In this document: piece by piece, positions 40,319 through 61,458 of the stretch
Layout: each line of letters opens with the position of its first letter
Position numbering within the stretch: position 1 is the first letter of the stretch
From: Candidatus Spongiisociaceae bacterium
GTDB taxonomy: Bacteria; Actinomycetota; Acidimicrobiia; Spongiisociales; Spongiisociaceae
Direction of reading: 5' to 3'
DNA: 64,000 nt
Assembly: GCA_965202665.1 (NCBI GenBank)
Contig: OZ241841.1
Coordinates: 1,536,001 to 1,600,000 of the forward strand
Program-made: the position numbers and the translations under genes
The notes under the pieces: generated by a model
The model's input: only the letters and a program-made list of their open reading frames with translations
The model's database searches: none
What the model was told of the DNA's origin: nothing

Positions 40319-41707
40319 ATGAACCGGCGGGCCCGCCTGGCGGAGCGGTTGGCGGAGGCGGAAGCGCGGGCCGGGGCGTTGGGGCGGTCCGCCTTTTTCA
40401 CCTTGGCCGTTCCCGCCGGGGATAGGGCGGATCCCTTGGCGGCGGCGGTCGGCTCGGAGGCCCCTTTCGCTTTCTGGGAGCAACCGGCCCGCGGGATTTC
40501 GTTCGCCGCTTTGGGTTCCGCCCATTCCCTCCTCGTCTCCGGAGGGGCCGATCGGTTCACCGCTATGTCAAACGCCCTGCGGGAGTTGCGGGCCCGCACC
40601 TTGCATCAGTCGTGGGACGGGGCCGACCGGACCCCCCTTTTGATAGGAGGGTTTTCCTTCGCCGGCGACTCCGGTTGGCCGGGCTTTCCCGCCGGGCGGC
40701 TGACCTTGCCCGCGCTGGCCCTCATCCGCCGTCCGTCCGGGACGGCCTGGGTGGCGGCGGCGCGGGTTCGCCGGGGGGATGACCCGCATCGGTTGGCCGA
40801 CTCCCTCATGGAGCGGGTGGAGCGGGCCGACGCCCGTCCCCCGCCCGTCCCCCGCCCTGCCGCCCCCGACCTTCGGGCGGCGGCGGAGGCGGACCTGTCG
40901 GATCCCCTTTTCAGGGAGACGGCGCAAGCGGCCGTCGAAGAGACAATCAACGGCGGCCTGTCCAAAGTGGTTCCCGCCCGCCGTCTGACGGTGGAAAGAC
41001 GCCCCGACCCGGGCCCCTTCCTGGCCGCCCTGCGGGAACATTTCACCGAATGCGCCATCTTTGCCTTCGCCGCCCCGGAAGGTGTTTTCTGCGGGGCCAC
41101 CCCGGAACTTTTGGCCCGGGTGGAGGGAGTGTCGGTGTCCACCGCGGCGTTGGCGGGCACCGCTCGGCGCGGGGCGGACGCCGCGCAGGATGAAAACATC
41201 GCCCGATGGCTGCGCGGCGACCCCAAGCAGGCCGAGGAGCACGATTACGTGCATTCGGAGATACGCCGCCGTCTGCAACAGGGCGGTTTCGCAGTGGACC
41301 CCCCGGCGCCGACCGAGGTGATGCGGTTGCCCGGACTGCAGCATCTGCGCACCCCGGTCACCGCCGCCGCCCCGGTGGGAACCAACGTCTTGGACGTGAC
41401 CGGGGCCCTGCATCCCACCCCGGCCGTGGCCGGCCTTCCCACCGGGGAGGCTTTGGAATGGTTGCGGGCGCATGAGGGATTCGACCGAGGATGGTTCGCC
41501 GGTCCGGTCGGGTTCTGCGATCTGGCCGGGCAGGGCGAGTTTCACGCCGCGTTGCGGTGCGCCCTGTTGCGCCGGACTGATTGCGACCTGTTCGCCGGGG
41601 CGGGGGTGGTGGCCGCCTCCGTTCCCGAGCGGGAACTGGAGGAAACCGAACTGAAACTGCGGGCGTTGCTCCCCTGGGCGCTGGGCTCGGAACCGGCGCC
41701 GCCGTAA
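40319..41707 (+). CDS. menF: Isochorismate synthase
   Basis: KVVPAR, GATPELL, LAGT, LHPTPAV.G, RGWFAGPVG, AGAGVV. Confidence 0.88.
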   Translation: MNRRARLAERLAEAEARAGALGRSAFFTLAVPAGDRADPLAAAVGSEAPFAFWEQPARGISFAALGSAHSLLVSGGADRFTAMSNALRELRARTLHQSWDGADRTPLLIGGFSFAGDSGWPGFPAGRLTLPALALIRRPSGTAWVAAARVRRGDDPHRLADSLMERVERADARPPPVPRPAAPDLRAAAEADLSDPLFRETAQAAVEETINGGLSKVVPARRLTVERRPDPGPFLAALREHFTECAIFAFAAPEGVFCGATPELLARVEGVSVSTAALAGTARRGADAAQDENIARWLRGDPKQAEEHDYVHSEIRRRLQQGGFAVDPPAPTEVMRLPGLQHLRTPVTAAAPVGTNVLDVTGALHPTPAVAGLPTGEALEWLRAHEGFDRGWFAGPVGFCDLAGQGEFHAALRCALLRRTDCDLFAGAGVVAASVPERELEETELKLRALLPWALGSEPAPP

Positions 41708-41727
41708 AGGGGGTGGGAGGTGTTGAT

Positions 41728-43407
41728 GTGGTGAACGATGTGCGGGGCGGGGCTTATCGTACCGCGGCCGCGGTTTTGGGGGCGCTGGCCGAGTTGGGAA
41801 TGAGGACGGTGTTCGTCTCGCCCGGTTCCCGTTCGGCTCCCCTGGCGGCCTCCGCCGATGCTATGGCCGGTTTGGATGTCCGTATGATGTTGGACGAGCG
41901 TTGCGCCGGGTTCGCCGCTTTGGGGACGGCCGCCGCCTCCGGGCGGATGACCGGGCTGATCTGCACCTCCGGTTCGGCGGGGGCCCATTACCTGCCGGCC
42001 GCGGTGGAAGCCAACCGGGCCCGTATCCCCCTGGCTCTTCTAACCGCCGACCGCCCCCCCGGTTTTTTGGAACGGGACGCCCCGCAGACCATCGACCAAT
42101 CCAACCTGTTCGGAGCGCAGGTGCGGTCCTTCCTCGGCCTGCCCGTAGCCCACGAGGCGGAGCCGGGGGAGGCGGCCCGTCTGGTCTATGAGGCGGCCCG
42201 GGCCGGGTTGCCGCCCAACGCCGGGCCGGTGCACGTCAACCTGCCGTTCGCCAAGCCTTTGGAGCCGCCGCCCGAATGGGCGCCCGCCCCCCGCCCCGCC
42301 GGGGACGGAGAACCGCCGGAGGAGCCGGCCCCGCCCGCTCCGGAGTCGGTGGAGAAGATGCGCCGCTTCGCCGGGGAGGGGCGGCGGGGGCTGGTGGTAG
42401 CCGGGCCGAGGAGAGTCGGGCTGGCGGAGCGGGCCGCCCTGGCGGCGTGGGCGGCGGCGGCCGGATGGCCGATAGCGGCCGACCCGCTGTCCGGGTTGCG
42501 CACCGGCCCTTGCCCGCAGGTGATTTCCACCGGGGAGATGCTGGCGGGCGATGACCGGTTCGCCGCCGCCCACCGCCCGCAGGCCGTGTTGCGGGTGGGC
42601 GGAATCCCCACCGGCCGCCGCACCCAGCAGTGGCTGGAATCTTTGGAATGCCCGCAGTTGATACTCGATCCCGACCGGTGGTGGACCGCCCCCGGCCCGC
42701 AGACGGTGTTGCGGGACCCCCTGCCCGGTTTGCTGGCCGGGGCGCCGGCGGGGGCGGCGGACGGGGCTTGGGGGGAGGCTTGGCGGGAAGCCGACCGGGA
42801 AGCTTCCGTCCGCAGGCGGGAGGAGCGGCGGTCGCATCCGGATACGGAACCGGCCTTGGCGGCGGCGGTTCTGGAAAGGTCGGAGACGGTGTGGGTTGGG
42901 GGGAGTATGCCGGTCCGTCACTTGGATCTGATGATGGAAGCCGGCTCAGGGACGGCGGTGATGGGCGCCCGGGGGGCGTGCGGCATCGACGGCTCCGTCG
43001 CCGCCGCCGCCGGGGCCTCCTTGGGGACGGGAAAGCGGGTGACGGCCCTGATGGGCGACCTGGCTTTTCTGCATGATTTGGGTTCCCTTCCGGCGGCCGC
43101 CCGCATGGGGGCGGAGTTGACGGTGGCGGTGTTGGATAACGGGGGCGGGGCCATCTTCGGCATGTTGCCCATCGCCCGCTCCCCGGGAGTGGATTTGGAG
43201 CGGTTGTTCACTTTTCCCCATCATTTGGATTTGACGGAGGCCGCCTCCGGGCTGGGGGCGCGGGTGAGGCGGGCCGGAACGCTTGATATGCCGGGGGTTT
43301 TGGCGCAGGCGGCGGAGGAGGGCGGGACGTGGGTGGTGGTGGCGGAAACCGATCCCGGCCAGATGCGAGCCGTCTACCAACGACTGACCGGGGGTTGGCG
43401 GGAATAA
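41728..43407 (+). CDS. menD: SEPHCHC synthase
   Basis: SPGSRSAPL, DER.AGF.ALG, TADRP, GIDG, GDLAFLHD, DNGGGAIF. Confidence 0.92.
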   Translation: MVNDVRGGAYRTAAAVLGALAELGMRTVFVSPGSRSAPLAASADAMAGLDVRMMLDERCAGFAALGTAAASGRMTGLICTSGSAGAHYLPAAVEANRARIPLALLTADRPPGFLERDAPQTIDQSNLFGAQVRSFLGLPVAHEAEPGEAARLVYEAARAGLPPNAGPVHVNLPFAKPLEPPPEWAPAPRPAGDGEPPEEPAPPAPESVEKMRRFAGEGRRGLVVAGPRRVGLAERAALAAWAAAAGWPIAADPLSGLRTGPCPQVISTGEMLAGDDRFAAAHRPQAVLRVGGIPTGRRTQQWLESLECPQLILDPDRWWTAPGPQTVLRDPLPGLLAGAPAGAADGAWGEAWREADREASVRRREERRSHPDTEPALAAAVLERSETVWVGGSMPVRHLDLMMEAGSGTAVMGARGACGIDGSVAAAAGASLGTGKRVTALMGDLAFLHDLGSLPAAARMGAELTVAVLDNGGGAIFGMLPIARSPGVDLERLFTFPHHLDLTEAASGLGARVRRAGTLDMPGVLAQAAEEGGTWVVVAETDPGQMRAVYQRLTGGWRE

Positions 43408-43483: not shown

Positions 43484-43512
43484 TTGACAAATTAGGGGGG
43501 GGGGGGTAGCGT
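43484..43512 (+). promoter_or_regulatory. Promoter with poly-G spacer (paralog 1, 17-bp spacer)
   Basis: TTGACA-AATTA-G12-TAGCGT. Confidence 0.75.
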
Positions 43513-43598: not shown

Positions 43599-46500
43599 AT
43601 GTCGGTTCGCGTGTCGGGGAAGGTTTGGCTTATAGGATTGTTGGTGTTGGGTTTGACGGCGAGTTTGCTGGGTGCGGCTCCGCCGGGTGCGGTGGGGACG
43701 CATGGGGATGATGCGGATGTGGATTATGAGCCATCGTATTCGGCCTGCGTGGGGGCGGCGACGGAGTCTTTCGGGTTTGAGGACACGGAAGGATCGTTCG
43801 CGGAGGAGGCTATCAATTGTTTGGCGCATTATGGGATCACCACCGGCCGGTCGGCGACGATGTTCGCTCCCAACGATTCGGTGTTGCGGTGGCAGATGGC
43901 CCTGTTTTTGGCGAGGGCGGCCGCGGCGGCGGGGATCGTGTTGGCGAACCCGGCTACCGATCAGGGTTTCACGGATGTTGGGGGAGTGTCGGGGGAGGCC
44001 CGTAACGCTATCAACGGTTTAGCGGCGGCGGGGATTATGCCCGGCACGTCGCAGACGACGTTTAGTCCGAATAGTTCGGTGACGCGTGGTTCCATGGCTG
44101 TGTTGTTGGATGCTTTCCTGGCGCGGGCGACGTTGGGGGCGGGGGCGTTTGGGGGTGAGATTGAGAAGCATTCGGATATAGAGGTGGATAATTTCAATGT
44201 GTTTAGCGATATTGATGGGGTGTCGTTGAATACGTATAATGCGATTTATCGTATTTATGAGGTGGGGGTGACGCAGGGGGTGGGTGATCATCAGTTCGGT
44301 CCGGGTCGTAACGTGACAAGGGCGCAGATGGCGGCCTTCATCACCCGGGCCTTTGCGCACACCGTAGCCCGTCCGGCCGGGGTGTCTATTCAGGCGGAGA
44401 AAGATTCGGTGTTGGGGGAGTCGTCGGTGCAACTTATTGTGTCGGTGCGGGATGCGATGTTTCAGCCGGTGGTGGATGCGTCGGTGGATGTGTTCCGTTC
44501 CACCGACCCTGACAACGCTCTGAAGGACGACGGGACTTGCGATACAGCCAGTGTTAGTCAGGTGGCTGGTATTGGCCGGGCGGCGTGTGAGGTGGATACG
44601 GGGGATGAAACAACGGACGCGGCGGGGGATGTTACCGCGTTGCAGTTGCAGGTGTCGGATGCGGATGTGACGGTGTGGGCGTGGACCGGGGACCGGGCTG
44701 ACAAGTTTGATTCCGATGACACCACCGCCGCCCAGCTGACCGTCGGTTTCTCCAAGGCGGCCAGCCAGTTGCTGGTGACCGACAATTTGGAGGAGGGGCA
44801 GACCCATCTGCAGTTTGGGGAAACAGCCACGCTGACGGTGCAGGTGGCTAATGAGGATGATGAGCCGGTGGCGGAGAAGGATGTGGGGGTGAAGGTCGCC
44901 CAGGTTACCACTCCGGATGTGAGCAAGACGACGGAAACTAACTCGTCAACCAACACCTATACCACTGATGCGTCGGGCAAGTTTCAGTTGTCGTTTACCC
45001 AGACCGATCCCAGTTCCGGTGATGATGAGGACGCAACGGTGGTGGTTACTTTGAGCGAACCGTCCTCTTATACACTCCAGGATGAAGACGGCGAGGCATT
45101 CGCCTCCAAAACCTACACTTGGTCCGACGAGGCGGGGGTTCCGGCCAAGTTGGTGTTGGAAACGCGGCAGGAGTACGCCGAAGCGTCCGATGAGGGCCGG
45201 GGGGCGGTGGCGGCGGTTACCGCCACTTTGACCGACCAGTTCGGCAACCCGGTGCGCGGCCAGCGAATCCACTTCTGGTCCGACGACCCAGCCGGAGTGG
45301 GCCAGAAATCGGACGATATTGCTCTGGAATGGGTGCGGAACGCAATCACTTTGGCCGCCACCGGTACTGTTAATTCGGCCAACGTCCAGTGGCGGCGAGT
45401 GGGTTTCCGCATTTTGCGGAATTTGATGCCCCAGGTTACTTACACCCGTACCACCAACCGGTCGGGTGCGGCCACATTGTCCTACAGCCGGGATGCGACG
45501 GGGGGCGTGATCGAGACGATCCGGGCCCGGTTGGTGCGGGGTGAGGACGACGCCACCACGAGGAGCGAGAGGTGGCCGTGGAGCCGCGCCAGCGAAGCGG
45601 AGGATCCCCGAGACCTGGTGAGCGAGAGGGCGACCTTTTATTGGGCCGAAGAGTTGGACGACGACGATTCGGCGAAAGGCCGGATTTTGGTGAAAGACGC
45701 CGATGCCCGCCGGCTGGTGTTCGGAGCTGATGACGGCCGGGTGAGAATGATCACCTACGACGGCAACGACCAGTTCCGAACGAACGGGACCCCAATCGTG
45801 ATGTCCGAGTTCGAAAAGTATCTGAAAGGCACCGCCGCTCATATCATCATCAACGAATATTCCGATACTGCGAGCGACGTCAGTTCGTTCGACACGACGG
45901 CGGAATGGCCGCAGGTGGATATGAGCAAGATTCCGGTGCCGCAGGCATCGGGACGGACGGTGGAGGCCGTTGGCAACGGCATGGTCATTTTAGCGGCCGA
46001 CGGCGGCGCTATCGTGGTCGGTTCTTTCTGGGAGAACAACTACGCCGGTGCGGTGTATGTCTTCGACGGGGTGGACGATGACGCCCCTCAGAAGTTGACC
46101 GCCCCCACTCCGCAACCCACCACTTTCACCGATAGCCATGTCACTAACCATTGGTATAACAAGCCGTGGGAATTCAACCTGCCGACTTCGGGAGGGCATT
46201 TCGGCTATGCGGTGGACATCCGGGGCGACACTATCGTGGTGGGCGAACCGGGCCGCCTCAGCACCCATACGATCAACAAAGGAACCTCCGACCCTCGGAC
46301 TGGGGTGGCAACCGACGGAGCGGTTTACGTTTACACCAAGAACGCTTCCGGCACCTGGGAGTTGGACGCCACGTTGACGTTGGCGGACTTCGTGGGCTCG
46401 GAGAACGGCCGGATCACCGGCGGTTGGGACGCGGGAATGGAGCTGGGCCGGTCAGTGGTGGTTTCCGAAGATGAAACCACCATCGCCGCCTCCGCACCCC

Positions 46501-47447
46501 GGTTTTTAACTAACCAGAACAGCCGACGAATGGGCGGGGTGCACATTTTCAAACGGCCCGATCAAACTGGCCGGAACACGGCAACCATCGGCAAATGGGA
46601 TGATGCTACGGGGGCCGCAACCTCCCGACTGGATGTGTCTACCAATTATATAAACACCAATAAAAACAGCGGAAACCGGACCTTGGCCCGCGATAGGGAG
46701 TTGGCTATTTCTCGAGATGGAAGCACGGTGGTAGTGGGCAACAGCTGGTTTAGCCGGGTGTTGGATAATGTGAAACATGATTGGGTGGGAGGGGCGTTTA
46801 TCTACACCGCCCCATCCGGCGGATGGGTAGCCGCCGCGCAATATGAGGAAGACACCGTCTTGCAGTCCCCCACCCCCTACTCCGGGGAGAGAATGGCCGT
46901 GTCGCTGGGGGTGTCCGCTGATGGAAGCACGGTGGTGGTGTCGGCTCACTTCCGGCCCGAGTTGATGCGACAAGGCAAGGTGCTGATCTACGAGAGGCCC
47001 GACCAGAGCGGCCGTTCCGCGGGCGACAAATGGGGCGACGCCGACAACCTGATGGACCCCAGCGCCGTTTTGACGCATCCTTTGGAGCATCCGGATAAGC
47101 CCGACGGTTGCTTGGCTTCGGCCGGTCCGGTGCTGGGATGCAACATTGGGGAGACTTTCGGACAATGGGTGGACATCAACGATGCCGGCGACCGTATTCT
47201 GGCCGCCCACCCCGCCCGTACCGAAGGCCGCTATCTGGGTTCCACGCGTCTCTTCACCGAGCCGGCGGGCGGCTGGTCGACGGTCACCGCCGACAACCAG
47301 CCCTCTTCGGTGGAGTTCTTAGGGGCGGACCCCGGGGCTTTCGCGGGATGGCGAAACCATTTCGATCAAGACACCGGCGACATCTACATGATGGATTCCG
47401 ATCCCGACGCCAATGGCGCCGTCCGCGCCTACAAAATAACGCCTTAG
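43599..47447 (+). CDS. Surface (S-layer) protein paralog 1: SLH domains, Ig-like region, FG-GAP-like beta-propeller
   Basis: Signal peptide; SLH motifs (FAPNDSVLRWQMA, FGPGRNVTRAQMA); repeats of FGYAVDI..DTIVVG and GAVYV. Confidence 0.85.
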   Translation: MSVRVSGKVWLIGLLVLGLTASLLGAAPPGAVGTHGDDADVDYEPSYSACVGAATESFGFEDTEGSFAEEAINCLAHYGITTGRSATMFAPNDSVLRWQMALFLARAAAAAGIVLANPATDQGFTDVGGVSGEARNAINGLAAAGIMPGTSQTTFSPNSSVTRGSMAVLLDAFLARATLGAGAFGGEIEKHSDIEVDNFNVFSDIDGVSLNTYNAIYRIYEVGVTQGVGDHQFGPGRNVTRAQMAAFITRAFAHTVARPAGVSIQAEKDSVLGESSVQLIVSVRDAMFQPVVDASVDVFRSTDPDNALKDDGTCDTASVSQVAGIGRAACEVDTGDETTDAAGDVTALQLQVSDADVTVWAWTGDRADKFDSDDTTAAQLTVGFSKAASQLLVTDNLEEGQTHLQFGETATLTVQVANEDDEPVAEKDVGVKVAQVTTPDVSKTTETNSSTNTYTTDASGKFQLSFTQTDPSSGDDEDATVVVTLSEPSSYTLQDEDGEAFASKTYTWSDEAGVPAKLVLETRQEYAEASDEGRGAVAAVTATLTDQFGNPVRGQRIHFWSDDPAGVGQKSDDIALEWVRNAITLAATGTVNSANVQWRRVGFRILRNLMPQVTYTRTTNRSGAATLSYSRDATGGVIETIRARLVRGEDDATTRSERWPWSRASEAEDPRDLVSERATFYWAEELDDDDSAKGRILVKDADARRLVFGADDGRVRMITYDGNDQFRTNGTPIVMSEFEKYLKGTAAHIIINEYSDTASDVSSFDTTAEWPQVDMSKIPVPQASGRTVEAVGNGMVILAADGGAIVVGSFWENNYAGAVYVFDGVDDDAPQKLTAPTPQPTTFTDSHVTNHWYNKPWEFNLPTSGGHFGYAVDIRGDTIVVGEPGRLSTHTINKGTSDPRTGVATDGAVYVYTKNASGTWELDATLTLADFVGSENGRITGGWDAGMELGRSVVVSEDETTIAASAPRFLTNQNSRRMGGVHIFKRPDQTGRNTATIGKWDDATGAATSRLDVSTNYINTNKNSGNRTLARDRELAISRDGSTVVVGNSWFSRVLDNVKHDWVGGAFIYTAPSGGWVAAAQYEEDTVLQSPTPYSGERMAVSLGVSADGSTVVVSAHFRPELMRQGKVLIYERPDQSGRSAGDKWGDADNLMDPSAVLTHPLEHPDKPDGCLASAGPVLGCNIGETFGQWVDINDAGDRILAAHPARTEGRYLGSTRLFTEPAGGWSTVTADNQPSSVEFLGADPGAFAGWRNHFDQDTGDIYMMDSDPDANGAVRAYKITP

Positions 47448-47469
47448 TCGCTTCACGCAACCCAACACG

Positions 47470-47510
47470 ACAGGAAACCCCCCGCACCGAAGCGGGGGGC
47501 TTTCCTGTTT
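47470..47510 (+). terminator. Intrinsic terminator after paralog 1
   Basis: CAGGAAACCCCCCGC...GCGGGGGGCTTTCCTG-TTT. Confidence 0.8.
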
Positions 47511-47552
47511 AAACCAAACTTCAGGGGATGGGGGCGGGTTGGAGGGATTGAC

Positions 47553-47579
47553 TTGACAAATTGGGGGGGGGGGTAGCGT
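47553..47579 (+). promoter_or_regulatory. Promoter with poly-G spacer (paralog 2, 15-bp spacer)
   Basis: TTGACA-AATT-G11-TAGCGT. Confidence 0.7.
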
Positions 47580-47671
47580 TTTAGTCTGTTGGGCTTTACG
47601 GCGTGTGAGGTTGCCCGCTGAGTGGTCTGCGTAGTTAACGAAAAATCCTGGATTCGGAAGGAGGAATGATA

Positions 47672-50600
47672 ATGGCGGCTCGTGTGTTGGGTAGGGTTTG
47701 GCTTGTAGGATTGTTGGTGTTGGGTCTGGTGGCCAGTTTGTTGGGTGCGGCTCCGCCGGGTGCGGTGGGGACGCATGGGGATGATGCGGATGTGGATTAT
47801 GAGCCGTCGTATTCGGCCTGTGTGGGGGCGGCGACGGAGTCTTTCGGGTTTGAGGACACGGAAGGGTCGTTCGCGGAGGGGGCGATTGATTGTTTGGCGC
47901 ATTATGGGATAACGACCGGTCGGTCGGCGACGATGTTTGCTCCCAATGATTCGGTGTTGCGGTGGCAGATGGCCCTGTTTTTGGCGAGGGCGGCCGCGGC
48001 GGCGGGGATCGTGTTGGCGAATCCGGCTGCTGATCAGGGGTTTACGGATGTGGGGGCGGTGTCGGGGGAGGCCCGTAACGCTATCAACGGTTTAGCGGCG
48101 GCGGGAATCATGCCCGGCATGTCGCAGACGACGTTTAGTCCGAATAGTTCGGTGACGCGTGGTTCCATGGCTGTGTTGTTGGACGCTTTCCTGGCGCGGG
48201 CGACTCCGGGGGCGGGGGCGTTTGGGGGTGAGATTGAGAAGTATTCGGATGTGATGGTGGATAGTTCCGATGTTTTCAATGATATTAGTGGGGTGTCGTT
48301 GAATACTTATAATGCGATTTATCGTATTTATGAGGTGGGGGTGACGCAGGGGGTGGGGGATCATCAGTTCGGGCCGGGTCGTAATGTGACGCGGGCGCAG
48401 ATGGCGGCGTTTATCACGAGGGCGTTTGCGCATACGGTGGCTCGTCCGGCGGGGGTGTCGATTCAGGCGGAGCGGGATTCGGTGTTGGGGGAGTCGTCGG
48501 TGCAGTTGATTGTGTCGGTGCGGGATGCGATGTTTCAGCCGGTGGTGGATGCGTCGGTGGATGTGTTCCGTTCCACCGATCCCGACAACGCTTTGAAGGA
48601 CGACGGCACATGCGATACAGCTAGTGTTGGTCAGGTGGCTGGTATTGGCAGGGCGGCGTGTGAGGTGGATACGGGGGATGAGACGACTGATGCGGCGGGG
48701 GACGTTACCGCGTTGCAGTTGCAGGTGTCGGATGCGGATGTGACGGTGTGGGCGTGGACCGGGGACCGGGATGACAAGTTCGATTCCGACGACACGGCTT
48801 CGGCGCAGTTGACCGTCGGTTTCTCTAAGGCGGCCAGCCAGTTGTTGGTGACCGACAATTTGGAGGAGGGGCAGACCCATTTGCAGTTCGGGGAAACGGC
48901 TACGTTGACGGTGCAGGTGGCTAATGAGGATGATGAGCCGGTGGCGGAGAAGGGGGTGGGGGTGAAGGTCGCCCAGGTTACCACTCCCGATGTGAGCAAG
49001 ACGACGGAGACCAACTCGTCCACCAATACCTATACCACTGACGCGTCGGGCAAGTTTCAGTTGTCGTTCACCCTGACCGATCCCAGCTCCGGCGACGATG
49101 AGGACGCGACGGTGGCGGTTACTTTGAGCGAACCGTCCTCTTATTCCCTCCAAGACGAAGACGGCACCGCATTCTCCTCCAAGACCTACACTTGGTCCGA
49201 TGATGTGGGGGTTCCGGCCAAGTTGGTGTTGGAAACGCAGAATATGTGGGCCGAGGCGTCGGATGAGGGCCGGGGGGCGGTAGCGGCGGTTACCGCCACT
49301 TTGACCGACCAGTTCGGCAACCCGGTACGGGGACAGCGAATCCACTTTTGGTCCGACGACCCAGCCGGGGTAAGTGAGAAATCTGAAGATGCCCTGTTGG
49401 CCAGGGTGCGGACCACCGCCACCAGCGGCAGCCAAAATTCCCACAAGGATTTTCACTTCACCGTGTTGCATGATTTGATCGGCGAGGCTCAGTACGCGCG
49501 TACTACCAACCGGGCGGGTAGGGCTGTATTGACCTACAACCGGGATGCGACGGCGGGTGTCATTGAGACGGTGCGGGCCCGAATAATACGGGGAGCGGAC
49601 GACGCCAAAAGAGTAAGCGACGACGACCCTGATCTGTTGAGCGAGAAAGTGTCTTTCTTTTGGGCTGAAGAGTTGGACGACGACGATTCGGATTCTGGTC
49701 GAATTTTGGTGAAGGAGGCGGACGCCCGGCGGGTGGTGTTTGCGGCCCAGGATGGCCGGGTGAGAATGATCACCTACGATGGCAACGACCAGTTCCGGCG
49801 GGCGGGCGTTCCGATAACGAGTGCGGATTTTGAAAAATATCTGAAAGACACCGCCGCCCATATTACGGTCAACATTTATTCCGACACCGCAGGCGGCGTC
49901 AGTTCGTTTGACGCGACGGCGGAATGGCCGTCTACCGATCTGACCGAAATTCCGGTTCCGACGGCGTTGGGTCAGACCGCCACCGAACTCCACAACGGAA
50001 TGATTCATTACGCGGTAGATAGTGACACGATCGTGGTTGGTTCTTTCATGGATAACAACTACGCCGGCGCGGTATACGTTTACGACGGGGTGGACGATGA
50101 AACACCCCAGAAGTTGACCGCTCCCACCCCGCAACCCACCACTTTCACTGGGGATTGGCGTACCGCTGCTTGGAACCTCAAGCCGTGGTCTCTCAACCTG
50201 GCGATTTCGGGAGGGCAGTTCGGCTATGCGGTGGATATCCGGGGCGATACCATCGTGGTGGGAGAGCCCGGTCGTTTGAGCAACAGTGTTATAGCCGCTT
50301 CCCGCGTTCGTAATGGAGTCACCCAGGCTAGCATCCGGAATGGGCGGGCGGCCGACGGCGCGGTTTACGTTTACACCAAGAACAGTTCCGGAACCTGGGA
50401 GTTGGACGCCACTTTGACGGCCAACGGCTCCACTTTGCGCGGGGGGCGGATACCGTTGAACGACTGGGGGGCGAGAGGGTTTCAGATGGGCAGGGCGGTG
50501 GCGGTCTCCGGCGACGAAACCCACATTGCCGCTAGCACTCCCGGCTTCCTAACCGTCCAAAGGCGGATAGGCGGGGCCTTCGTGTTTGAACGGCCCGACC

Positions 50601-51463
50601 AAACCGGACGGAACACGGCAACCAACGGCAAATGGGACGATGATAACGGAGCCAACTCGGACCGCTTTGAGCCGGGAGCCGACAACGTGAACCAAAACCA
50701 AAATCGTTGGAGCGAGCTTTTCGGGGCGGACCGGGAGTTGGCGATCTCGAACAACGGGCTGACGGTGGTGGTGGGGGCCCACTACTTCAACCGAACAGTG
50801 GAGGGGGTGCGATACACCTGGGGAGGAGGGGCGTATATCTTCACCAGCGCTGACTGGAATGACGGCACGGCAAACATTTATGAACAGGACGCCGTCCTGA
50901 ACTCCCCCAACCCGTACACGTCTGAGGGGTTTGGGGCGTCGGTGGCGGTGGACGACGACGGGTCGACGGTGGTGGTTTCCGCCAACTTCCGTCCCAACAT
51001 GTTACGACGGGGCAAAGCCCTGATCTTCGAACGTCCCGACCAGTCCGGACGTTCCGCCAACAACCAATGGGAGAACGAGATGAATCCCACCGCTGTCCTC
51101 ACGGCCCCGGATCATCCAGACGCGCCTGATAATTGCACGGCCGCAGCCGGCCCGGTGCTGGGATGCAACATCGGAGAGGTGTTCGGACAGTGGGTGGACA
51201 TCACCGGCGACGGCGGGAAAATCTTAGCCTCCCGGGGTTTCCGGACCGAGGGCGCCCTGCGGGGTTCAAGCCTTATCTTCACCGAACCGGCCGGCGGTTG
51301 GTCGACGGTCACCGCCGACCGGCAACCCTCCAATGTGGAATATCTGGGCTCCGAACTGGAATCGCTACTTGGATGGCGCAACCATTTCGACCAAGCCAAC
51401 GGCAAGTTTTACGTCTATGAGGAACCCGAGGGCGGGATACTCATATACCAGATAACGCCTTAG
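47672..51463 (+). CDS. Surface (S-layer) protein paralog 2
   Basis: N-terminal ~560 aa nearly identical to paralogs 1 and 3; RBS GGAGG. Confidence 0.85.
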   Translation: MAARVLGRVWLVGLLVLGLVASLLGAAPPGAVGTHGDDADVDYEPSYSACVGAATESFGFEDTEGSFAEGAIDCLAHYGITTGRSATMFAPNDSVLRWQMALFLARAAAAAGIVLANPAADQGFTDVGAVSGEARNAINGLAAAGIMPGMSQTTFSPNSSVTRGSMAVLLDAFLARATPGAGAFGGEIEKYSDVMVDSSDVFNDISGVSLNTYNAIYRIYEVGVTQGVGDHQFGPGRNVTRAQMAAFITRAFAHTVARPAGVSIQAERDSVLGESSVQLIVSVRDAMFQPVVDASVDVFRSTDPDNALKDDGTCDTASVGQVAGIGRAACEVDTGDETTDAAGDVTALQLQVSDADVTVWAWTGDRDDKFDSDDTASAQLTVGFSKAASQLLVTDNLEEGQTHLQFGETATLTVQVANEDDEPVAEKGVGVKVAQVTTPDVSKTTETNSSTNTYTTDASGKFQLSFTLTDPSSGDDEDATVAVTLSEPSSYSLQDEDGTAFSSKTYTWSDDVGVPAKLVLETQNMWAEASDEGRGAVAAVTATLTDQFGNPVRGQRIHFWSDDPAGVSEKSEDALLARVRTTATSGSQNSHKDFHFTVLHDLIGEAQYARTTNRAGRAVLTYNRDATAGVIETVRARIIRGADDAKRVSDDDPDLLSEKVSFFWAEELDDDDSDSGRILVKEADARRVVFAAQDGRVRMITYDGNDQFRRAGVPITSADFEKYLKDTAAHITVNIYSDTAGGVSSFDATAEWPSTDLTEIPVPTALGQTATELHNGMIHYAVDSDTIVVGSFMDNNYAGAVYVYDGVDDETPQKLTAPTPQPTTFTGDWRTAAWNLKPWSLNLAISGGQFGYAVDIRGDTIVVGEPGRLSNSVIAASRVRNGVTQASIRNGRAADGAVYVYTKNSSGTWELDATLTANGSTLRGGRIPLNDWGARGFQMGRAVAVSGDETHIAASTPGFLTVQRRIGGAFVFERPDQTGRNTATNGKWDDDNGANSDRFEPGADNVNQNQNRWSELFGADRELAISNNGLTVVVGAHYFNRTVEGVRYTWGGGAYIFTSADWNDGTANIYEQDAVLNSPNPYTSEGFGASVAVDDDGSTVVVSANFRPNMLRRGKALIFERPDQSGRSANNQWENEMNPTAVLTAPDHPDAPDNCTAAAGPVLGCNIGEVFGQWVDITGDGGKILASRGFRTEGALRGSSLIFTEPAGGWSTVTADRQPSNVEYLGSELESLLGWRNHFDQANGKFYVYEEPEGGILIYQITP

Positions 51464-51485
51464 CCGCTTCACGCAACCCAACACG

Positions 51486-51525
51486 ACGGGAAGCCCCCCG
51501 CACCGAAGCGGGGGGCTTCCTGTTT
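51486..51525 (+). terminator. Intrinsic terminator after paralog 2
   Basis: GGAAGCCCCCCGC...GCGGGGGGCTTCC-TGTTT. Confidence 0.8.
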
Positions 51526-51568
51526 ACCCCAAACTTCAGGGGATTGGGGCGGGTTGGGGCGGATTGAC

Positions 51569-51597
51569 TTGACAAATTAGGGGGGGGGGGGTAGCGT
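51569..51597 (+). promoter_or_regulatory. Promoter with poly-G spacer (paralog 3, 17-bp spacer)
   Basis: TTGACA-AATTA-G12-TAGCGT. Confidence 0.75.
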
Positions 51598-51689
51598 TTT
51601 GGACTGTTGGGCTTTACGGCGTGTGAGGTTGCCCGCTGAATGACCTGCGTAGTTAACAAAAAAATCCTGGATTCGGAAGGAGGATGTAA

Positions 51690-54600
51690 ATGTCGGTTCG
51701 CGTGTCGGGGAAGGTTTGGCTTGTAGGATTGTTGGTGTTGGGTTTGACGGCGAGTTTGCTGGGTGCGGCTCCGCCGGGGGCGGTGGGGACGCATGGGGAT
51801 GATGCGGATGTTGATTATGAGCCATCGTATTCGGCCTGCGTGGGGGCGGCGACGGAGTCTTTCGGGTTTGAGGACACGGAGGGGTCGTTCGCGGAGGGGG
51901 CGATTGATTGTTTGGCGCATTATGGGATCACCACGGGACGGTCGGCGACGATGTTCGCTCCCAATGATTCGGTGTTGCGGTGGCAGATGGCCCTGTTTTT
52001 GGCGAGGGCGGCCGCGGCGGCGGGGATCGTGTTGGCGAACCCGGCGGCTGATCAGGGTTTCACGGATGTGGGGGCGGTGTCGGGGGAGGCCCGTAACGCT
52101 ATCAACGGTTTAGCGGCGGCGGGAATCATGCCTGGTGTGTCGCAGACGACGTTTAGTCCGAATAGTTCGGTGACGCGTGGTTCCATGGCTGTGTTGCTGG
52201 ACGCGTTTTTAGCGCGGGCGACGTTGGGGGCGGGGGCGTTTGGGGGTGAGATTGAGAAGTATTCGGATATAGAGGTGGATAATTTCAATGTGTTTAGCGA
52301 TATTGATGGGGTGTCGTTGAATACTTATAATGCGATTTATCGGATTTATGAGGTGGGGGTGACGCAGGGGGTGGGGGATCATCAGTTCGGGCCGGGTCGT
52401 AATGTGACGCGGGCGCAGATGGCGGCGTTCATCACCCGGGCGTTTGCGCACACCGTAGCCCGTCCGGCCGGGGTGTCCATACAAGCGGAGAAAGATTCGG
52501 TGCTGGGGGAATCATCGGTGCAACTTATCGTATCGGTGCGGGATGCGATGTTTCAGCCGGTGGTGGATGCGTCGGTGGATGTGTTCCGTTCCACCGATCC
52601 CGACAACGCGTTGAATGATGATGGCAGGTGTAATGCGGCCAGTGTTGGTCAGGTGGCTGGTATCGGCAGGGCGGCTTGTGAGGTGGATACGGGGGATGAG
52701 ACTACGGACGCGGCGGGGGATATCACCTCCTTGCAACTGCAGGTGTCGGATGCGGATGTGACGGTGTGGGCGTGGACCGGGGACCGGGCTGACAAGTTTG
52801 ATTCCGATGACACCACCGCCGCCCAGTTGACCGTCGGGTTTTCCAAGGCGGCCAGCCAGTTGTTGGTGACTGACAATTTGGAGGAGGGGCAGACCCGTTT
52901 GCAGTTCGGGGAGACGGCTACGCTGACGGTGCAGGTGGCTAATGAGGATGATGAGCCGGTGGCGGAGAAGGGGGTGGGGGTGAAGGTCGCCCAGGTTACT
53001 ACTCCGGATGTGAGCAAGGCGACGGAGACCAACTCGTCCACCAACACCTATACCACGGACGCTACCGGGAAGTTTCAGTTGTCGTTTACCCAGACCGATC
53101 CCAGTTCCGGTGATGATGAGGACGCAACGGTGGTGGTTACTTTGAGCGAACCGTCCTCTTATTCCCTCCAAGACGAAGACGGGACCGCGTTCTCCTCCAA
53201 GACCTACACCTGGTCCGATGATGTGGGGGTTCCGACCAAACTGGTGTTGGAAACCCGGCAGATGTGGGCCGAAGCGTCTGAAGAGGGCCGGGGGGCGGTG
53301 GCGTCGGTTACCGCCACTTTGACCGACCAGTTCGGCAACCCGGTGCGGGGCCAGCGAATTCATTTCTGGTCCGATGACCCAGCCGGGGTAAGCGAGAAAT
53401 CTGAAGATGCCCTGTTGACCAGGGTGCGGACCACCGCTGCCAGCGACGCCAACAATATCCATCGTGCTTTTCCCTTCACCGTGTTGCATAATCTGGTCGG
53501 TGAGGCTCAGTACGCGCGTACCACCAACCGGGCAGGCGCGGCCACATTGACCTACAACCGGGATGCGACGGCGGGTGTCATCGAGACGGTGCGGGCCCGG
53601 ATGATACGGGGGGAGGACGACGCTAAAAGAGAAAGCGGCGACGACCCCGATCTGTTAAGCGATAAAGTGTCTTTCTTTTGGGCTGAAGAGTTGGACGACG
53701 ACGATTCGGATTCTGGTCGAATTTTGGTGAAGGAGGAGGACGCCCGGCGGGTGGTGTTTGCGGCTGAGGATGGCCGGGTGAGAATGATCACCTACGATGG
53801 CAACGACCAGTTCCGGCGGGCGGGCGCTCCGATAACGAGTGCGGATTTTGAAAAATATCTGAAAGACACCGCCGCCCATATTACGGTCAACATTTATTCC
53901 GACACCGCAGGCGGCGTCAGTTCGTTCGACGCGACGGCGGAATGGCCGTCTACCGATCTGCCCAAAATTCCGGTTCCGACGGCGCTGGGCCGGACCGTCA
54001 CCAGGCTCCACAACGGAATGATTCATTACGCGGTGGATGGGGGCACGATCGTGGTTGGTTCTTTCTTGGAGAACAACTACGCCGGCGCGGTGTACGTTTA
54101 TGACGGGGTGGGCGATGAAACGCCCCAGAAGTTGACCGCCCCCACCCCGCAACCCACCACTTTCACCGGGGATTGGACTACCACTGCTTGGAACGTCAAG
54201 CCGTGGTCTCTCAACTTGGCGACTTCGGGAGGGCAGTTCGGTTATGCGGTGGATATCCGGGGCGACACCATCGTGGTGGGAGAGCCCGGTCGTTTGAGCA
54301 ACAGTGTCATAGCCGCTTCCCGCGTTCGTAATGGAGTGACCCAGACTAGCATCCGGAACGGGCGGGCAGCCGACGGCGCGGTTTACGTTTACACCAAGAA
54401 CAGTTCCGGAACCTGGGAGTTGGACGCCACTTTGACGGCTAACGGCTCCACTTTGCGCGGGGGACGGATACCGTTGAACGACTGGGGGGCGAGAGGGTTT
54501 CAGATGGGCCTGGCGGTGGCGGTCTCCGGCGACGAAACCCACATTGCGGCCAGCACTCCCGGCTTCTTAACCGTCCAAAGGCGGATAGGCGGGGCCTTCG

Positions 54601-55466
54601 TGTTTGAACGGCCCACCAGTGCTGCCAACGGCAAATGGGACGATGACAACGGGGCCAACTCGGACCGCTTTGAGCCGGGAGCCGACAACGTGAACGAAAA
54701 CCAAAATCGTTGGAGCGAGCTTTTCGGGGCGGACCGGGAGTTGGCGATCTCGAACAACGGACTGACGGTGGTGGTGGGGGCCAACCTTTTCAACCGAACA
54801 GTGGAGGGGGTGCGATACACCTGGGGGGGAGGGGCGTATATCTTTACCAGCACCAACTGGAATGACGGCGCGGCGGACATTTATGAACAGGACGCCGTCC
54901 TGAACTCCCCCAACCCGTTCTGGGCTGAGAAGTTTGGCCGGTCGGTGGCGGTGGACGATGACGGGTCGACGGTGGTGGTTTCCTCCAACTTCCGTCCCAA
55001 CATGTTGCGACGGGGCAACGCGCTGATCTACGAACGTCCAGCCGGACCTCTAGACAACGACCAATGGGAGGACGAGATGAATCCCACCGCTATCCTCACC
55101 GCCCCGGATCATCCAGACGCGCCTGATAATTGCACGGCCGCGTTGGGCCCGGTGCTGGGATGCAACGTTGGGGAGGTGTTCGGACAGTGGGTGGACATCA
55201 CCGGCGACGGCGAGAAGATCTTAGCCTCCCGGGGTTACCGGACCGAGGGCGCCCTGCGGGGTTCAACCCTTCTCTTCACCGAACCGTCCGGCGGCTGGTC
55301 GACGGTCACCGCCGACCGGCAACCCTCCAATGTGGAATATCTGGGTTCCGAACTGGAGGGGCTGTTTGGATGGCGCAACCATTTCGACCAAGCCAGCGAC
55401 AACGACGATATTTACTCCTATGAGGATCCCGAAGGCGGGATACTCATATACCAGATAACGCCTTAG
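51690..55466 (+). CDS. Surface (S-layer) protein paralog 3
   Basis: Same architecture as paralogs 1 and 2; C-terminal half closest to paralog 2. Confidence 0.85.
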   Translation: MSVRVSGKVWLVGLLVLGLTASLLGAAPPGAVGTHGDDADVDYEPSYSACVGAATESFGFEDTEGSFAEGAIDCLAHYGITTGRSATMFAPNDSVLRWQMALFLARAAAAAGIVLANPAADQGFTDVGAVSGEARNAINGLAAAGIMPGVSQTTFSPNSSVTRGSMAVLLDAFLARATLGAGAFGGEIEKYSDIEVDNFNVFSDIDGVSLNTYNAIYRIYEVGVTQGVGDHQFGPGRNVTRAQMAAFITRAFAHTVARPAGVSIQAEKDSVLGESSVQLIVSVRDAMFQPVVDASVDVFRSTDPDNALNDDGRCNAASVGQVAGIGRAACEVDTGDETTDAAGDITSLQLQVSDADVTVWAWTGDRADKFDSDDTTAAQLTVGFSKAASQLLVTDNLEEGQTRLQFGETATLTVQVANEDDEPVAEKGVGVKVAQVTTPDVSKATETNSSTNTYTTDATGKFQLSFTQTDPSSGDDEDATVVVTLSEPSSYSLQDEDGTAFSSKTYTWSDDVGVPTKLVLETRQMWAEASEEGRGAVASVTATLTDQFGNPVRGQRIHFWSDDPAGVSEKSEDALLTRVRTTAASDANNIHRAFPFTVLHNLVGEAQYARTTNRAGAATLTYNRDATAGVIETVRARMIRGEDDAKRESGDDPDLLSDKVSFFWAEELDDDDSDSGRILVKEEDARRVVFAAEDGRVRMITYDGNDQFRRAGAPITSADFEKYLKDTAAHITVNIYSDTAGGVSSFDATAEWPSTDLPKIPVPTALGRTVTRLHNGMIHYAVDGGTIVVGSFLENNYAGAVYVYDGVGDETPQKLTAPTPQPTTFTGDWTTTAWNVKPWSLNLATSGGQFGYAVDIRGDTIVVGEPGRLSNSVIAASRVRNGVTQTSIRNGRAADGAVYVYTKNSSGTWELDATLTANGSTLRGGRIPLNDWGARGFQMGLAVAVSGDETHIAASTPGFLTVQRRIGGAFVFERPTSAANGKWDDDNGANSDRFEPGADNVNENQNRWSELFGADRELAISNNGLTVVVGANLFNRTVEGVRYTWGGGAYIFTSTNWNDGAADIYEQDAVLNSPNPFWAEKFGRSVAVDDDGSTVVVSSNFRPNMLRRGNALIYERPAGPLDNDQWEDEMNPTAILTAPDHPDAPDNCTAALGPVLGCNVGEVFGQWVDITGDGEKILASRGYRTEGALRGSTLLFTEPSGGWSTVTADRQPSNVEYLGSELEGLFGWRNHFDQASDNDDIYSYEDPEGGILIYQITP

Positions 55467-55489: not shown

Positions 55490-55527
55490 CGGGAGGCCTC
55501 CCGCTAAAGCGGGGGGCTTCCTGTTTT
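55490..55527 (+). terminator. Intrinsic terminator after paralog 3
   Basis: GGGAGGCCTCCCGC-TAAA-GCGGGGGGCTTCCTG-TTTT. Confidence 0.75.
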
Positions 55528-55550: not shown

Positions 55551-56825
55551 TCAGCCGGGGCGCCGGGCGGCGGCGGCCCGCGCCGGGCGGGGGGAGCCGC
55601 CGTCGTCGATGGGCAGGTGGATGAGCATGGCGAACAGCCCCAGCCCTATGGCCGCCAGCCACACCGCCCGGTAGTCGCCGGTGGCGTCGAACAGGCGGCC
55701 TCCCAGCCACACTCCCAGAAACGACCCTATCTGATGGCTGAAAAACACCACGCCGAACATGGTGGACAGATACCGCACTCCGCCCAGGTGGGCGGCGGTG
55801 GCGGAAGTGAGGGGGACGGTGGCCAGCCAGACGAACCCGATGGCCGCCCCGAAGACGATGGCCGTGACCGGGGTGAGCGGGACGGCCAACAGCCCGATCA
55901 TCAGCGCGGTGCGGGCGGCGTAGAGGGCGGCCAGCAGGCTCCGTTTGCGGAAAAAGTTTCCGAGGTAGCCGAAGACCGCCGACCCGGCGATGTTGAACAG
56001 GCCGATGGCGGCCAGGGAAAAGGACGCCGCCCGCAAGGACAGGCCCCGGTCCGTCAGGTAGGCGGGAAGGTGGGTGGCTACGAACCCCACGTGAAACCCG
56101 CACACGAAGAAACCGGAGTTGAGCAACAGGTAGCTGCGGTTGAGGGCTTTCCCGGTCAGGGTTCGCAAAGACAGGTCGGTACCTTCTCCTCCGGCGGAGT
56201 CTTCCCGGCGTCCGGGAAAAGCCCAGGCCAGGGCGGCCATTACCACGGAAGAAGCGGCGATTATTCCGAAGGAGGGGCGCCACCCGACCAGTTCTATGGC
56301 CGCCTCGAAGGCGGGGGCCAGGACGAACATTCCCAGGGAGGCGGCGGCGGTTATCAACCCCAGGGCGGTGGTGCGTTGCGCTTCGGGGGCCAACTGCCCG
56401 ACGGCGGCGATCACCAACGCCAGGGAAACGGCGCTCATCCCCACTCCGGCGGCCACTCCCAACAGCAACACCAGCCCGGCCCCCGATTCCGCCGCCGACG
56501 CCCCCAGCATGGCCGCCCCATACACCGCCGACCCGGCCGCCAGGATGTAACGGTGGTTGAACCGGTCGGCCAGGTAGGCGGCGATGGGGAAGCCCATTAT
56601 CAGGTTGAGCAGGGCCACCGCCAGGCTGAAAGTTTCCCGGCCCGTTCCCAGGCCGTCGCTCACCGCCGGCAGGAACACCCCCAGCGAAGCCCGGGTTCCC
56701 ATAATCAAAAAAACGATCCCGGATCCGGCCGCGGTGACCCCCCATATTCCCCGCCCTCTTTTTCCGCTCCCGGAGAGCAGGGCGGAGGGGCTCCCGCCGG
56801 TCGGGCGGGGGGCGCGGTCGGTCAT
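55551..56825 (-). CDS. MFS transporter
   Basis: About 12 TM helices; GFFVCGFHVGFVATHLPAYL, FFSHQIGSFLG. Confidence 0.9.
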   Translation of the reverse strand: MTDRAPRPTGGSPSALLSGSGKRGRGIWGVTAAGSGIVFLIMGTRASLGVFLPAVSDGLGTGRETFSLAVALLNLIMGFPIAAYLADRFNHRYILAAGSAVYGAAMLGASAAESGAGLVLLLGVAAGVGMSAVSLALVIAAVGQLAPEAQRTTALGLITAAASLGMFVLAPAFEAAIELVGWRPSFGIIAASSVVMAALAWAFPGRREDSAGGEGTDLSLRTLTGKALNRSYLLLNSGFFVCGFHVGFVATHLPAYLTDRGLSLRAASFSLAAIGLFNIAGSAVFGYLGNFFRKRSLLAALYAARTALMIGLLAVPLTPVTAIVFGAAIGFVWLATVPLTSATAAHLGGVRYLSTMFGVVFFSHQIGSFLGVWLGGRLFDATGDYRAVWLAAIGLGLFAMLIHLPIDDGGSPRPARAAAARRPG

Positions 56826-60664: not shown

Positions 60665-60764
60665 GGTGGCTGGGCCGTGAACAGCACCCGCCGGTGCTCC
60701 GGCCCGAGTCCACCGGATCCGGCAATGTGACTGGGGGGCCGGTTTCTTGCGCGATATCGCAAGC
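60665..60764 (+). repeat. Degenerate partial copy of the 5' part of the DUF433 gene (60878-60994)
   Basis: CGCCGGTGCTCCGGCCCGAG(T/C)CCACCGGATCCGGCAATGTGACT at 60689-60732 and 60905-60948. Confidence 0.9.
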
Positions 60765-60807: not shown

Positions 60808-61458
60808 TTGGGCCGTGAGATGTATTCGGCAGCGGAGGCGGCCCGCCTGCTCAGCGTTTCCTCGGCGACTCTGCGTCGGTGGCTGGAGGGCCGTGAACAG
60901 TATTCGCCGGTGCTCCGGCCCGAGCCCACCGGATCCGGCAATGTGACTTGGGGGGAGTTTGTGGAGGCCGGTTTCCTGCGCGAATATGGCAAGCGTCGCA
61001 GCCTGCAACATCTACGACCGGTTATCGCCCGGTTGCGGGCGGAATTTGATGTTTTGTACCCGCTTGCCACTGGTCAGCCCTTCGTAGGTCCGGGAATGGG
61101 TTTAACTCTGCGAACTCAACGCAACGAGAACCTTCCCGATGAGTTGGCCATCGTTCATGAGATCGTTTCGGGGCAGTTGGTTCTTACGCCCTTAACCAGC
61201 CGGTTTTTGGAGAGAGTCGATTTTTCTGAGGAGCCGCCCTATGGGTCGTTGCGGATTTTTCCGATGGGCAAGGATTCGCCAGTGGTCATCGATCCTGAAT
61301 ATTCATTCGGTTCCCCCACGGTGCGCGGCATCCGGACGGAGGTCATCGCCGAGTTGGTGGAGGCCGGTGAGGATATTGATGAAGTCGCTGAAGATTTTTC
61401 CTTGAAAGCCGTAGAAGTCCGGGCGGCGGTAGCCTACGAATGGCAACTGGCGGCCTGA
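60808..61458 (+). CDS. HTH + DUF433 antitoxin (VapB45/Rv2018-like), orphan
   Basis: YSAAEAARLLSVSSATLRRWL, TWGEFVEA, VVIDPEYSFGSPTVRGIRTE...VAEDFSL...AAVAYE. Confidence 0.85.
   Translation: MGREMYSAAEAARLLSVSSATLRRWLEGREQYSPVLRPEPTGSGNVTWGEFVEAGFLREYGKRRSLQHLRPVIARLRAEFDVLYPLATGQPFVGPGMGLTLRTQRNENLPDELAIVHEIVSGQLVLTPLTSRFLERVDFSEEPPYGSLRIFPMGKDSPVVIDPEYSFGSPTVRGIRTEVIAELVEAGEDIDEVAEDFSLKAVEVRAAVAYEWQLAA

Follow-up and report, generated by a model that had tools for sequence, protein, structure and literature searches.

A tandem array of predicted SLH-anchored propeller proteins with probable gene conversion in the anchor and a likely poly-G promoter switch in a Candidatus Spongiisociaceae genome

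Homopolymers in the promoters of surface-protein genes have been described in pathogenic bacteria. According to the accessible part of PMC7864442, porA of Neisseria meningitidis and tp0126 of Treponema pallidum carry a poly-G tract between the -35 and -10 hexamers, 17 nt being the optimal spacing. The accessible part of PMC10502178 describes vlp of Mycoplasma hyorhinis as a surface multigene family in which each gene has its own transcript and a promoter homopolymer, resulting in combinatorial display. Here we analysed a window of 64,000 nt (G000:C1:1,536,001-1,600,000) from the one-contig genome (G000; 2.77 Mb, 64% GC) of a Candidatus Spongiisociaceae bacterium, in which three long open reading frames (ORFs), P1, P2 and P3, lie in tandem and in one orientation between menD and a major facilitator superfamily (MFS) transporter gene. 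Each encodes a hydrophobic N-terminus, three S-layer homology (SLH) repeats, a beta-sandwich stalk and a C-terminal propeller domain. As in the tpr family of T. pallidum, paralogous surface proteins are found here together with promoter poly-G and recombination (PMC7864442, accessible part). Comparison of the sequences makes it likely that the array joins an anchor module under gene conversion with diverged heads and with poly-G promoters that are switched by slippage. The three genes are:

43599..47447, + strand: P1, 1282 aa; hydrophobic N-terminus, three SLH repeats, immunoglobulin-like (Ig-like) stalk, FG-GAP propeller
47672..51463, + strand: P2, 1263 aa; the earliest ATG in this frame lies at 47666
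51690..55466, + strand: P3, 1258 aa

A promoter-like cassette, of which the initial annotation made no mention, begins 113-121 nt upstream of each gene:

43484..43512, + strand: P1 cassette; TTGACA, 17-nt spacer with G12 (43495-43506), TAGCGT
47553..47579, + strand: P2 cassette; TTGACA, 15-nt spacer with G11 (47563-47573), TAGCGT
51569..51597, + strand: P3 cassette; TTGACA, 17-nt spacer with G12 (51580-51591), TAGCGT

The cassette pattern matched the window at these three places, with 0.00 matches expected (100 shuffles). In the whole genome we counted 24 cassettes, the spacer being 15 nt long in eight, 16 nt in 11 and 17 nt in five, and 23 of them precede large SLH-type proteins, which places their targets in the class of surface or defence genes. 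Nine of these belong to the present family, which has 19 ORFs in G000, and 14 are proteins of 1,840-4,500 aa with C-terminal SLH, the three scanned having SLH and Calx-beta domains; the remaining cassette (G000:C1:846,179-846,205) precedes, by 338 nt, a gene for a methylase-HNH fusion. The exact pattern was found 23 times in G000, 34 times in its congener G001 and 0 times in 29 other genomes searched, and the reversed pattern had 0 matches in G001. Homologs in a second genus (g4) carry poly-G (G10-16) in promoter position, within the upstream 170 nt, in 12 of the 17 cases examined; it often precedes TATAAT, TACAAT or TATAGT, and its flanks differ from those of the G000 cassette. Some homologs have interrupted-tract versions which read TTGACA, 16 to 18 nt, and TATGAT, TATAAT or TAATGT, and canonical boxes at this distance favour the promoter reading, under which the cassette would be a promoter of sigma-70 type. 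A 15-nt spacer would then be weak and one of 16-17 nt strong, so that P1 and P3 may be on and P2 low.

The homopolymer stands, as in porA and tp0126, between the -35 and -10 hexamers before a surface-protein gene; those are single genes of pathogens with measured expression (PMC7864442, accessible part), whereas the present cassette is repeated 24-34 times per genome, ahead of SLH-anchored families of an uncultured symbiont, and is known from sequence. P1-P3 each have their own cassette and a downstream hairpin and may be transcribed one by one like the vlp genes, nine of the 19 family ORFs in G000 having the cassette; vlp, however, has poly-A, lipoproteins and size variation by repeat number, in contrast to the poly-G, SLH, Ig-like stalk, propeller and anchor conversion found here (PMC10502178, accessible part). 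The array may represent a promoter design of the porA/tp0126 type multiplied over a family as in vlp, which would extend a known principle.

Runs of G or C in G000 are bimodal in length, with 865 runs of 7, 96 of 8, one of 9, none of 10 and 75 of at least 11, and a peak at 11-13. Within the bacterial family, 14 of the 18 further genomes contain G11 runs, against one of 12 genomes outside it, with assembly methods that differ among them. For P1 or P3, 4/4 sequencing runs (three studies) contained contigs with one G fewer in the tract, at roughly a quarter to half of the flanking depth, namely 19.5 vs 84.5 for the P1 type (run X13) and 50 vs 141 (X1), 49.6 vs 102 (X3) and 157 vs 491 (X8) for the P3 type. 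The long flanking contig halts in the P1 tract after 10-11 G's, again in 4/4 runs, and the 31-mers concerned are unique in G000. MutS_I and MutL_C were not found in G000, a 94% complete genome, while NucS was found; NucS repairs slippage loops poorly, and because MutS and MutL were not found slippage is expected to be frequent. We regard it as quite likely that the poly-G is a working expression switch, and a poly-G promoter before each copy would be the likely fast source of surface variation. Some observations weigh against such a switch: TAGCGT matches TATAAT at only 3/6 positions, a consensus promoter scan called no cassette (four sites vs 4.4 expected), the tract-free promoters of the family mostly have 16-nt spacers, and the shorter contigs, being contig-level evidence, may be sequencing or PCR stutter. 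With 16 nt as the norm, the commonest slip (17 to 16 nt, at P1 and P3) may change little, and that from 16 to 15 nt may be the real switch.

It could be argued that the poly-G is only part of a shared constitutive promoter, which was spread by duplication and conversion and where the tract's length has no effect on expression. Copies of the cassette hardly differ and move together with the leader, the spacers in G000 measure only 15-17 nt, the alleles with fewer G's may be artefacts, and the promoter escaped the consensus scan. But in the second genus poly-G occupies the promoter position between different flanks, the run lengths show a gap at 9-10 and a peak at 11-13, other long runs lie in restriction-modification genes and in frame-broken signal-peptide regions, and the conserved housekeeping-like paralogs of the family have no poly-G run. 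We consider a constitutive promoter unlikely.

Fifty-two G runs of G000 lie outside cassettes. Among their neighbours, 11 genes picked by hand for a defence-like look comprised seven restriction-modification genes, one DUF1156 gene, two helicases and one gene with no match. At G000:C1:1,191,756-1,232,124 and four more loci, genes of type ISP, type I HsdS, Eco57I-like and N6/N4 methylases carry G11-14 in or near their frames, and type ISP paralogs in a row share the positions of the run; these methylase and HsdS genes are candidates for phase-variable methylation specificity. In G001 (2,600,842-2,604,423, G13) and in the g4 genome G009 (1,138,266-1,142,015, G12) poly-G occurs in the signal-peptide coding region with the frame broken, which may constitute a second, translational switch in the family. 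Three giant ORFs of 10,398, 8,080 and 12,727 aa (G000:C1:1,141,275-1,172,471, 1,652,242-1,676,484 and 2,390,217-2,428,400) each have a G12-13 run on the opposite strand, ~50-170 nt from the called start, and a run of 33 G's at G000:C1:640,404-640,436 is far above the 11-13 mode.

The modules and tracts on which the comparison of the paralogs turns are:

43776..44354, + strand: P1 triple SLH anchor, ~aa 60-252 (Pfam PF00395, E=3e-26, three stretches)
44379..45908, + strand: P1 Ig-like beta-sandwich stalk, ~aa 261-770 (Big_1, BIg21 and MG4 below cut-off; model pLDDT 77)
45951..47444, + strand: P1 propeller, aa 785-1282, seven blades by the strand groups of the model (pLDDT 85.5, pTM 0.89)
48170..48392, + strand: P2 tract of ~221 nt identical to P5; 39 consecutive polymorphic sites agree
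52614..52637, + strand: mobile patch aa 309-316, at its P3 position (allele comparison)

The initial annotation described the paralogs as mosaics whose pairwise identity switches along the genes. All identities it listed are present, P1 being equal to P3 at the N-terminus, at SDIEVDNFNVFSDIDG and at DRADKFDSDDTTAA and to P2 at NALKDDGTCDTAS, RPDQTGRNTAT and ERPDQSGRSA, and P2 is indeed nearest to P3 from alignment column ~566 onward (nt identity 0.88-0.96 vs 0.57-0.76 for P1). As a mosaic, however, only the N-terminal half held up: partner switching exceeds chance there (runs test, p=0.0002 for 204 sites and p=0.001 for 129 synonymous codons), while the C-terminal half has no synonymous mosaic (141 synonymous codons, runs test p=0.26). 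Nor is the anchor constant, as had been stated, its identity being 91-92% at the nt level. The gene family is dispersed in G000 (~20 genes, of which 19 ORFs passed an SLH-plus-stalk filter), the three closest paralogs being P4 (2,271,100), P5 (1,460,5xx, 123 kb off) and P6 (2,094,0xx). Among P1-P6 the nearest relative of each of P1-P3 shifts window by window, and a compatibility test of nearby sites gave p=0.0005. The tract common to P2 and P5 (p=0.0001, Bonferroni 0.001) covers the segment where P2 departs from P1 and P3, and identical runs with a Bonferroni p<0.05 were found in 6/10 pairs among P1-P5. The P1 stalk is homogenised among paralogs as far as ~aa 510-565, the P1 promoter-leader is 97% identical to that of P4, 691 kb away, and the conversion donors include dispersed paralogs outside the array.

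Tandem duplication might mimic such a mosaic and leave no place for conversion if the anchor were under strong purifying selection and tolerant sites had been substituted repeatedly; non-synonymous divergence (dN) in aa 1-510 is only 0.02-0.04, and the high-GC codon bias permits homoplasy. Yet the synonymous divergence (dS) of P1 from P5 falls from 1.55 in the propeller to 0.30 in aa 1-510, and for this five-fold lower value in the anchor protein-level selection is not a sufficient explanation by itself. The 221-nt tract, multi-site patches that move as blocks between alleles, and trees that follow the genome in one half and the propeller type in the other speak against it as well, and we hold an origin with no conversion to be highly improbable.

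Comparison of strains, as proposed with the initial annotation, showed that the paralogs which carry a patch vary with the assembly. In G000 P3 and P5 have the aa 309-316 patch; it is also present in 3/4 other P1 alleles and missing from 1/3 other P3 alleles, while a patch at aa 430-468 occurs in two P1 and two P3 alleles of other assemblies and in none of G000 P1-P3. In eight full-length alleles of other assemblies 46/70 N-terminal changes equal the residue of another G000 paralog (p=6e-14), the chance bound being that at most 23% of columns allow a match, with fragmentary alleles dropped. Furthermore, trees were built from 21 genes picked from 47 long family members in five genomes, and all 47 were also compared. 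The N-terminal tree is grouped by genome with four label changes, which is the minimum, and supports a G000 P1-P6 clade at 100/99; the propeller tree is grouped by type with 10 label changes, and in it a G001 gene is the sister of the P5 head (100/99). The G000 P1-P6 clade, chosen from the N-terminal tree, was rejected when forced on the propeller tree (approximately unbiased test, p-AU 2e-74). The same pattern was seen in four other genomes, and the propeller types are common to both genera. Clustering by genome in the converted region and tracts that change partner, synonymous sites included, are the two marks of concerted evolution, and both were found here.

Recurrent gene conversion, which the initial annotation had put forward as generating antigenic or adhesive diversity, is well supported by tracts, allele patches and trees, but not as the source of head diversity. 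From these sequence patterns gene conversion among family members appears very probable, and it is likely to act on the SLH anchor and stalk, making the copies alike and letting this module be paired with different heads. On the other hand, the compatibility signal among P1-P6 is modest at synonymous third positions alone (p=0.023), sites within one patch are not independent in the 46/70 count, and the alleles of other assemblies are proteins only, their assembly method is not stated, and they may include chimeras.

A mosaic could also come from chimeric assembly of repeats, and no contig from the examined runs spans the array. Against this, the genome is a single contig with three intact frames; in another assembly a contig of 2,764,661 nt carries alleles of P1, P2 and P3 (22, 14 and 9 differences) with most patches kept, and a contig of 33,336 nt carries alleles of P2 and P3, the location of the alleles on a common contig being deduced in both cases from equal length and their adjacency not seen. 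Contigs also connect the flanks, and the head of P1 with the promoter of P2, without a single difference, and four other genomes show the same tree pattern, which leaves assembly chimerism scarcely credible as the origin of the mosaic. Logan contigs were rejected as a test of it, since mixed contigs occur in the repeats even of the run whose unique DNA shows 0 differences.

One loop of the propeller heads bears directly on the claimed identities:

50591..50623, + strand: P2 RPDQTGRNTAT loop, ancestral state common to P1 (synonymous differences; P3 deletion)

Neither RPDQTGRNTAT nor ERPDQSGRSA marks a DNA tract common to P1 and P2, which differ synonymously inside both. P4 has residues like those of P1 and P2 at these loops, the majority line of 30 sequences retains the longer loops, and P3 lacks five and two codons there, the deletions being present in 4/4 P3 alleles. 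That variation concentrates between the strands was confirmed: with residues sorted into strand and other by the predicted P1 propeller model, P1/P2 identity is 0.70 in 146 strand residues vs 0.53 in 352 others (p=0.0005), an excess of loop over strand variation as in any propeller family. Diversification of the heads by conversion was contradicted by the alleles, whose changes are no denser in the propellers (5.4, 1.4 and 2.2 per 100 residues in P1, P2 and P3) than in the N-termini (6.0, 1.8 and 4.6). The propellers are not hypervariable between strains, and dN/dS between propellers is ~0.4, which gives no whole-domain signal of positive selection on the heads. Contigs of the P1 head in four runs from four studies showed 0/2347, 0/1825, 1/968 and 25/1393 nt differences, the first of these runs being possibly the source sample of G000. 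These head alleles suggest that the diversity is one of old head types, which have been joined anew to an anchor that conversion keeps alike.

As first proposed, conversion would keep reshuffling the propeller loops into antigenic or adhesive variants. The loops are more variable than the strands, the P2 propeller changes match paralog residues in 6/7 cases, and P2 and P3 show little divergence in the propeller (dS 0.14) against an N-terminal divergence as great as that of any pair (dS 0.31), a contrast that implies block exchange or a recent head duplication. Nevertheless, the C-terminal half has no synonymous mosaic (p=0.26), and the motifs cited are deletions in P3; head changes are no denser than those of the anchor, and their 22/45 paralog matches are no excess over the permissive bound; and P1 head contigs are near-identical in most of the four runs, with dN/dS ~0.4. 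Loop reshuffling is largely refuted and, in our judgement, very unlikely. The preferred reading, a homogenised anchor carrying old and divergent heads, is a clear but familiar conversion pattern.

In TprK, defined regions of one expressed gene vary from silent donors. Unlike TprK, VlsE and pilE, which have a single expression locus and silent donors, P1-P3 are all full-length and have their own cassettes; exposed regions that are hypervariable among strains are not seen, and conversion affects the anchor. The Sap proteins of Campylobacter fetus have a conserved N-terminal anchor and divergent C-terminal parts, with recombination via the conserved 5' region, one promoter and inversions, whereas the present array has three promoters and one orientation. 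Long inverted repeats were not found in the array, those present reaching at most 37 nt and <=84% complementarity. Elsewhere in the genome, at G000:C1:1,771,064-1,783,970, two family genes in opposite orientation have N-terminal halves 99.6% identical, and one of the two, without its 5' end, adjoins long G runs, a split anchorless copy being also present; the locus is a candidate for a sap-like inversion or cassette locus. Two paralog pairs of other genomes are identical at the protein level in the N-terminal and middle parts, one in G009 (2,812,814/2,817,150) in which the propeller is identical too, and one, inverted, in G001 (2,608,345/2,614,328) in which the heads differ.

P1-P3 probably carry an N-terminal signal peptide. 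The SLH region of P1 has a weak match to the SLH domains of the Bacillus S-layer protein Sap (PDB 3PYW, E=4e-4). SLH anchoring needs a pyruvylated wall polymer, which is made via a pyruvyl transferase, and as for other SLH-anchored proteins the three SLH repeats are accompanied in G000 by a polysaccharide pyruvyl transferase gene (PF04230, of CsaB type by the criterion used). P1-P3 are predicted to be secreted, with SLH bound to the pyruvylated wall polymer. A Foldseek search with a 744-aa anchor-stalk model gave only uninformative matches to multi-sandwich proteins (TM 0.11-0.17). With the P1 propeller model only integrin entries were present among the matches listed (best E=3.5e-12, TM 0.51), at 11-15% identity to integrins. 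The propellers of P1-P3 match FG-GAP_2 (PF14312) at 28.5-33.4 bits against a cut-off of 23 and, as in integrin-alpha and FG-GAP proteins, the modelled fold appears seven-bladed; no NCBIfam family spans a whole P protein. We would give even chances to an adhesin role in which the integrin-like propeller binds host matrix or cells, the likeliest task for such a domain.

We envisage that homologous recombination through the common promoter-leader-SLH-stalk module would copy short tracts among paralogs and would occasionally re-pair the anchor with a different, long-diverged head, while replication slippage in the poly-G would set the -35/-10 spacing of each promoter. Cells would then differ in the subset of heads that they display, each raised over the wall by its stalk, and escape from phage or from phagocyte or host recognition would be the likeliest benefit of switching. 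It is somewhat more probable than an even chance that in a lineage of sponge-associated Acidimicrobiia a portable poly-G promoter-leader-SLH module, spread by conversion, sets the level of each of two to three dozen surface proteins in a genome independently, next to restriction-modification genes with poly-G switches of their own, giving combinatorial coats, and that it predates the split of the two genera. Most of what is known of phase variation comes from vertebrate pathogens, and a sponge host has no adaptive immunity; if true, 24-34 promoter switches on surface proteins in a symbiont would suggest that selection comes from phage, from host cells that phagocytose or from changes of niche. 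What is added here are conversion tests across strains and genomes, heads that are not the converted part, and the spread of the cassette over two genera. A literature search, with most subscription journals outside its coverage, returned no paper on such a system in sponge symbionts; the main text of PMC12008989, in its accessible part, does not mention S-layer, SLH or phase variation, and its supplements may list enriched SLH domains. The bacterium carrying the array is likely to live in sponges: of 19 sequencing runs listed with matches, five are labelled sponge metagenome and four marine metagenome, the rest being coded, and the name of Candidatus Spongiisociaceae derives from sponges (PMC11384910, accessible part).

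Full-length close homologs were present in G001 of the same genus and in G004, G009 and G013 of g4; among 31 genomes they are confined to one bacterial family, f1, and other families gave weak matches only. Array DNA from other strains was not found (0) in the metagenome contigs searched with DNA, and a search for related loci gave 0/57 candidates in genome contigs and one weak 40-aa match among 51 in metagenome contigs. The flanks of the array and the hairpins behind its genes are:

41581..43407, + strand: menD, left flank (TIGR00173, 336.6 bits, cut-off 244.2)
47478..47499, + strand: P1 intrinsic-terminator-like hairpin, called by the terminator scan
~51494-51515 and ~55497-55516, + strand: similar hairpins 3' of P2 and P3, respectively, read from the alignment and not called by the scan
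55551..56825, - strand: MFS transporter gene, right flank (NCBIfam MFS matches below cut-offs)

The terminator scan called eight sites, vs 12.4 expected. At the orthologous site of G001 (G001:C1:368,940-370,260) menD and the MFS gene lie 1.3 kb apart and the array is absent; the site holds the 3' end of menD in repeated, incomplete copies, a decayed remnant of the 5' end of a family gene (~70% identity) and a degenerate cassette with a short G run, and four intact cassettes begin 5-23 kb beyond it. The menD remnants, the family relic and the degenerate cassette suggest that the locus gains and loses copies. Further downstream in the G000 window, a 216-aa ORF (60808-61458) with no NCBIfam match is overlapped by one of two 67-nt direct repeats (60672-60738 and 60888-60954), which are 93% identical and lie in a stretch of lower GC.

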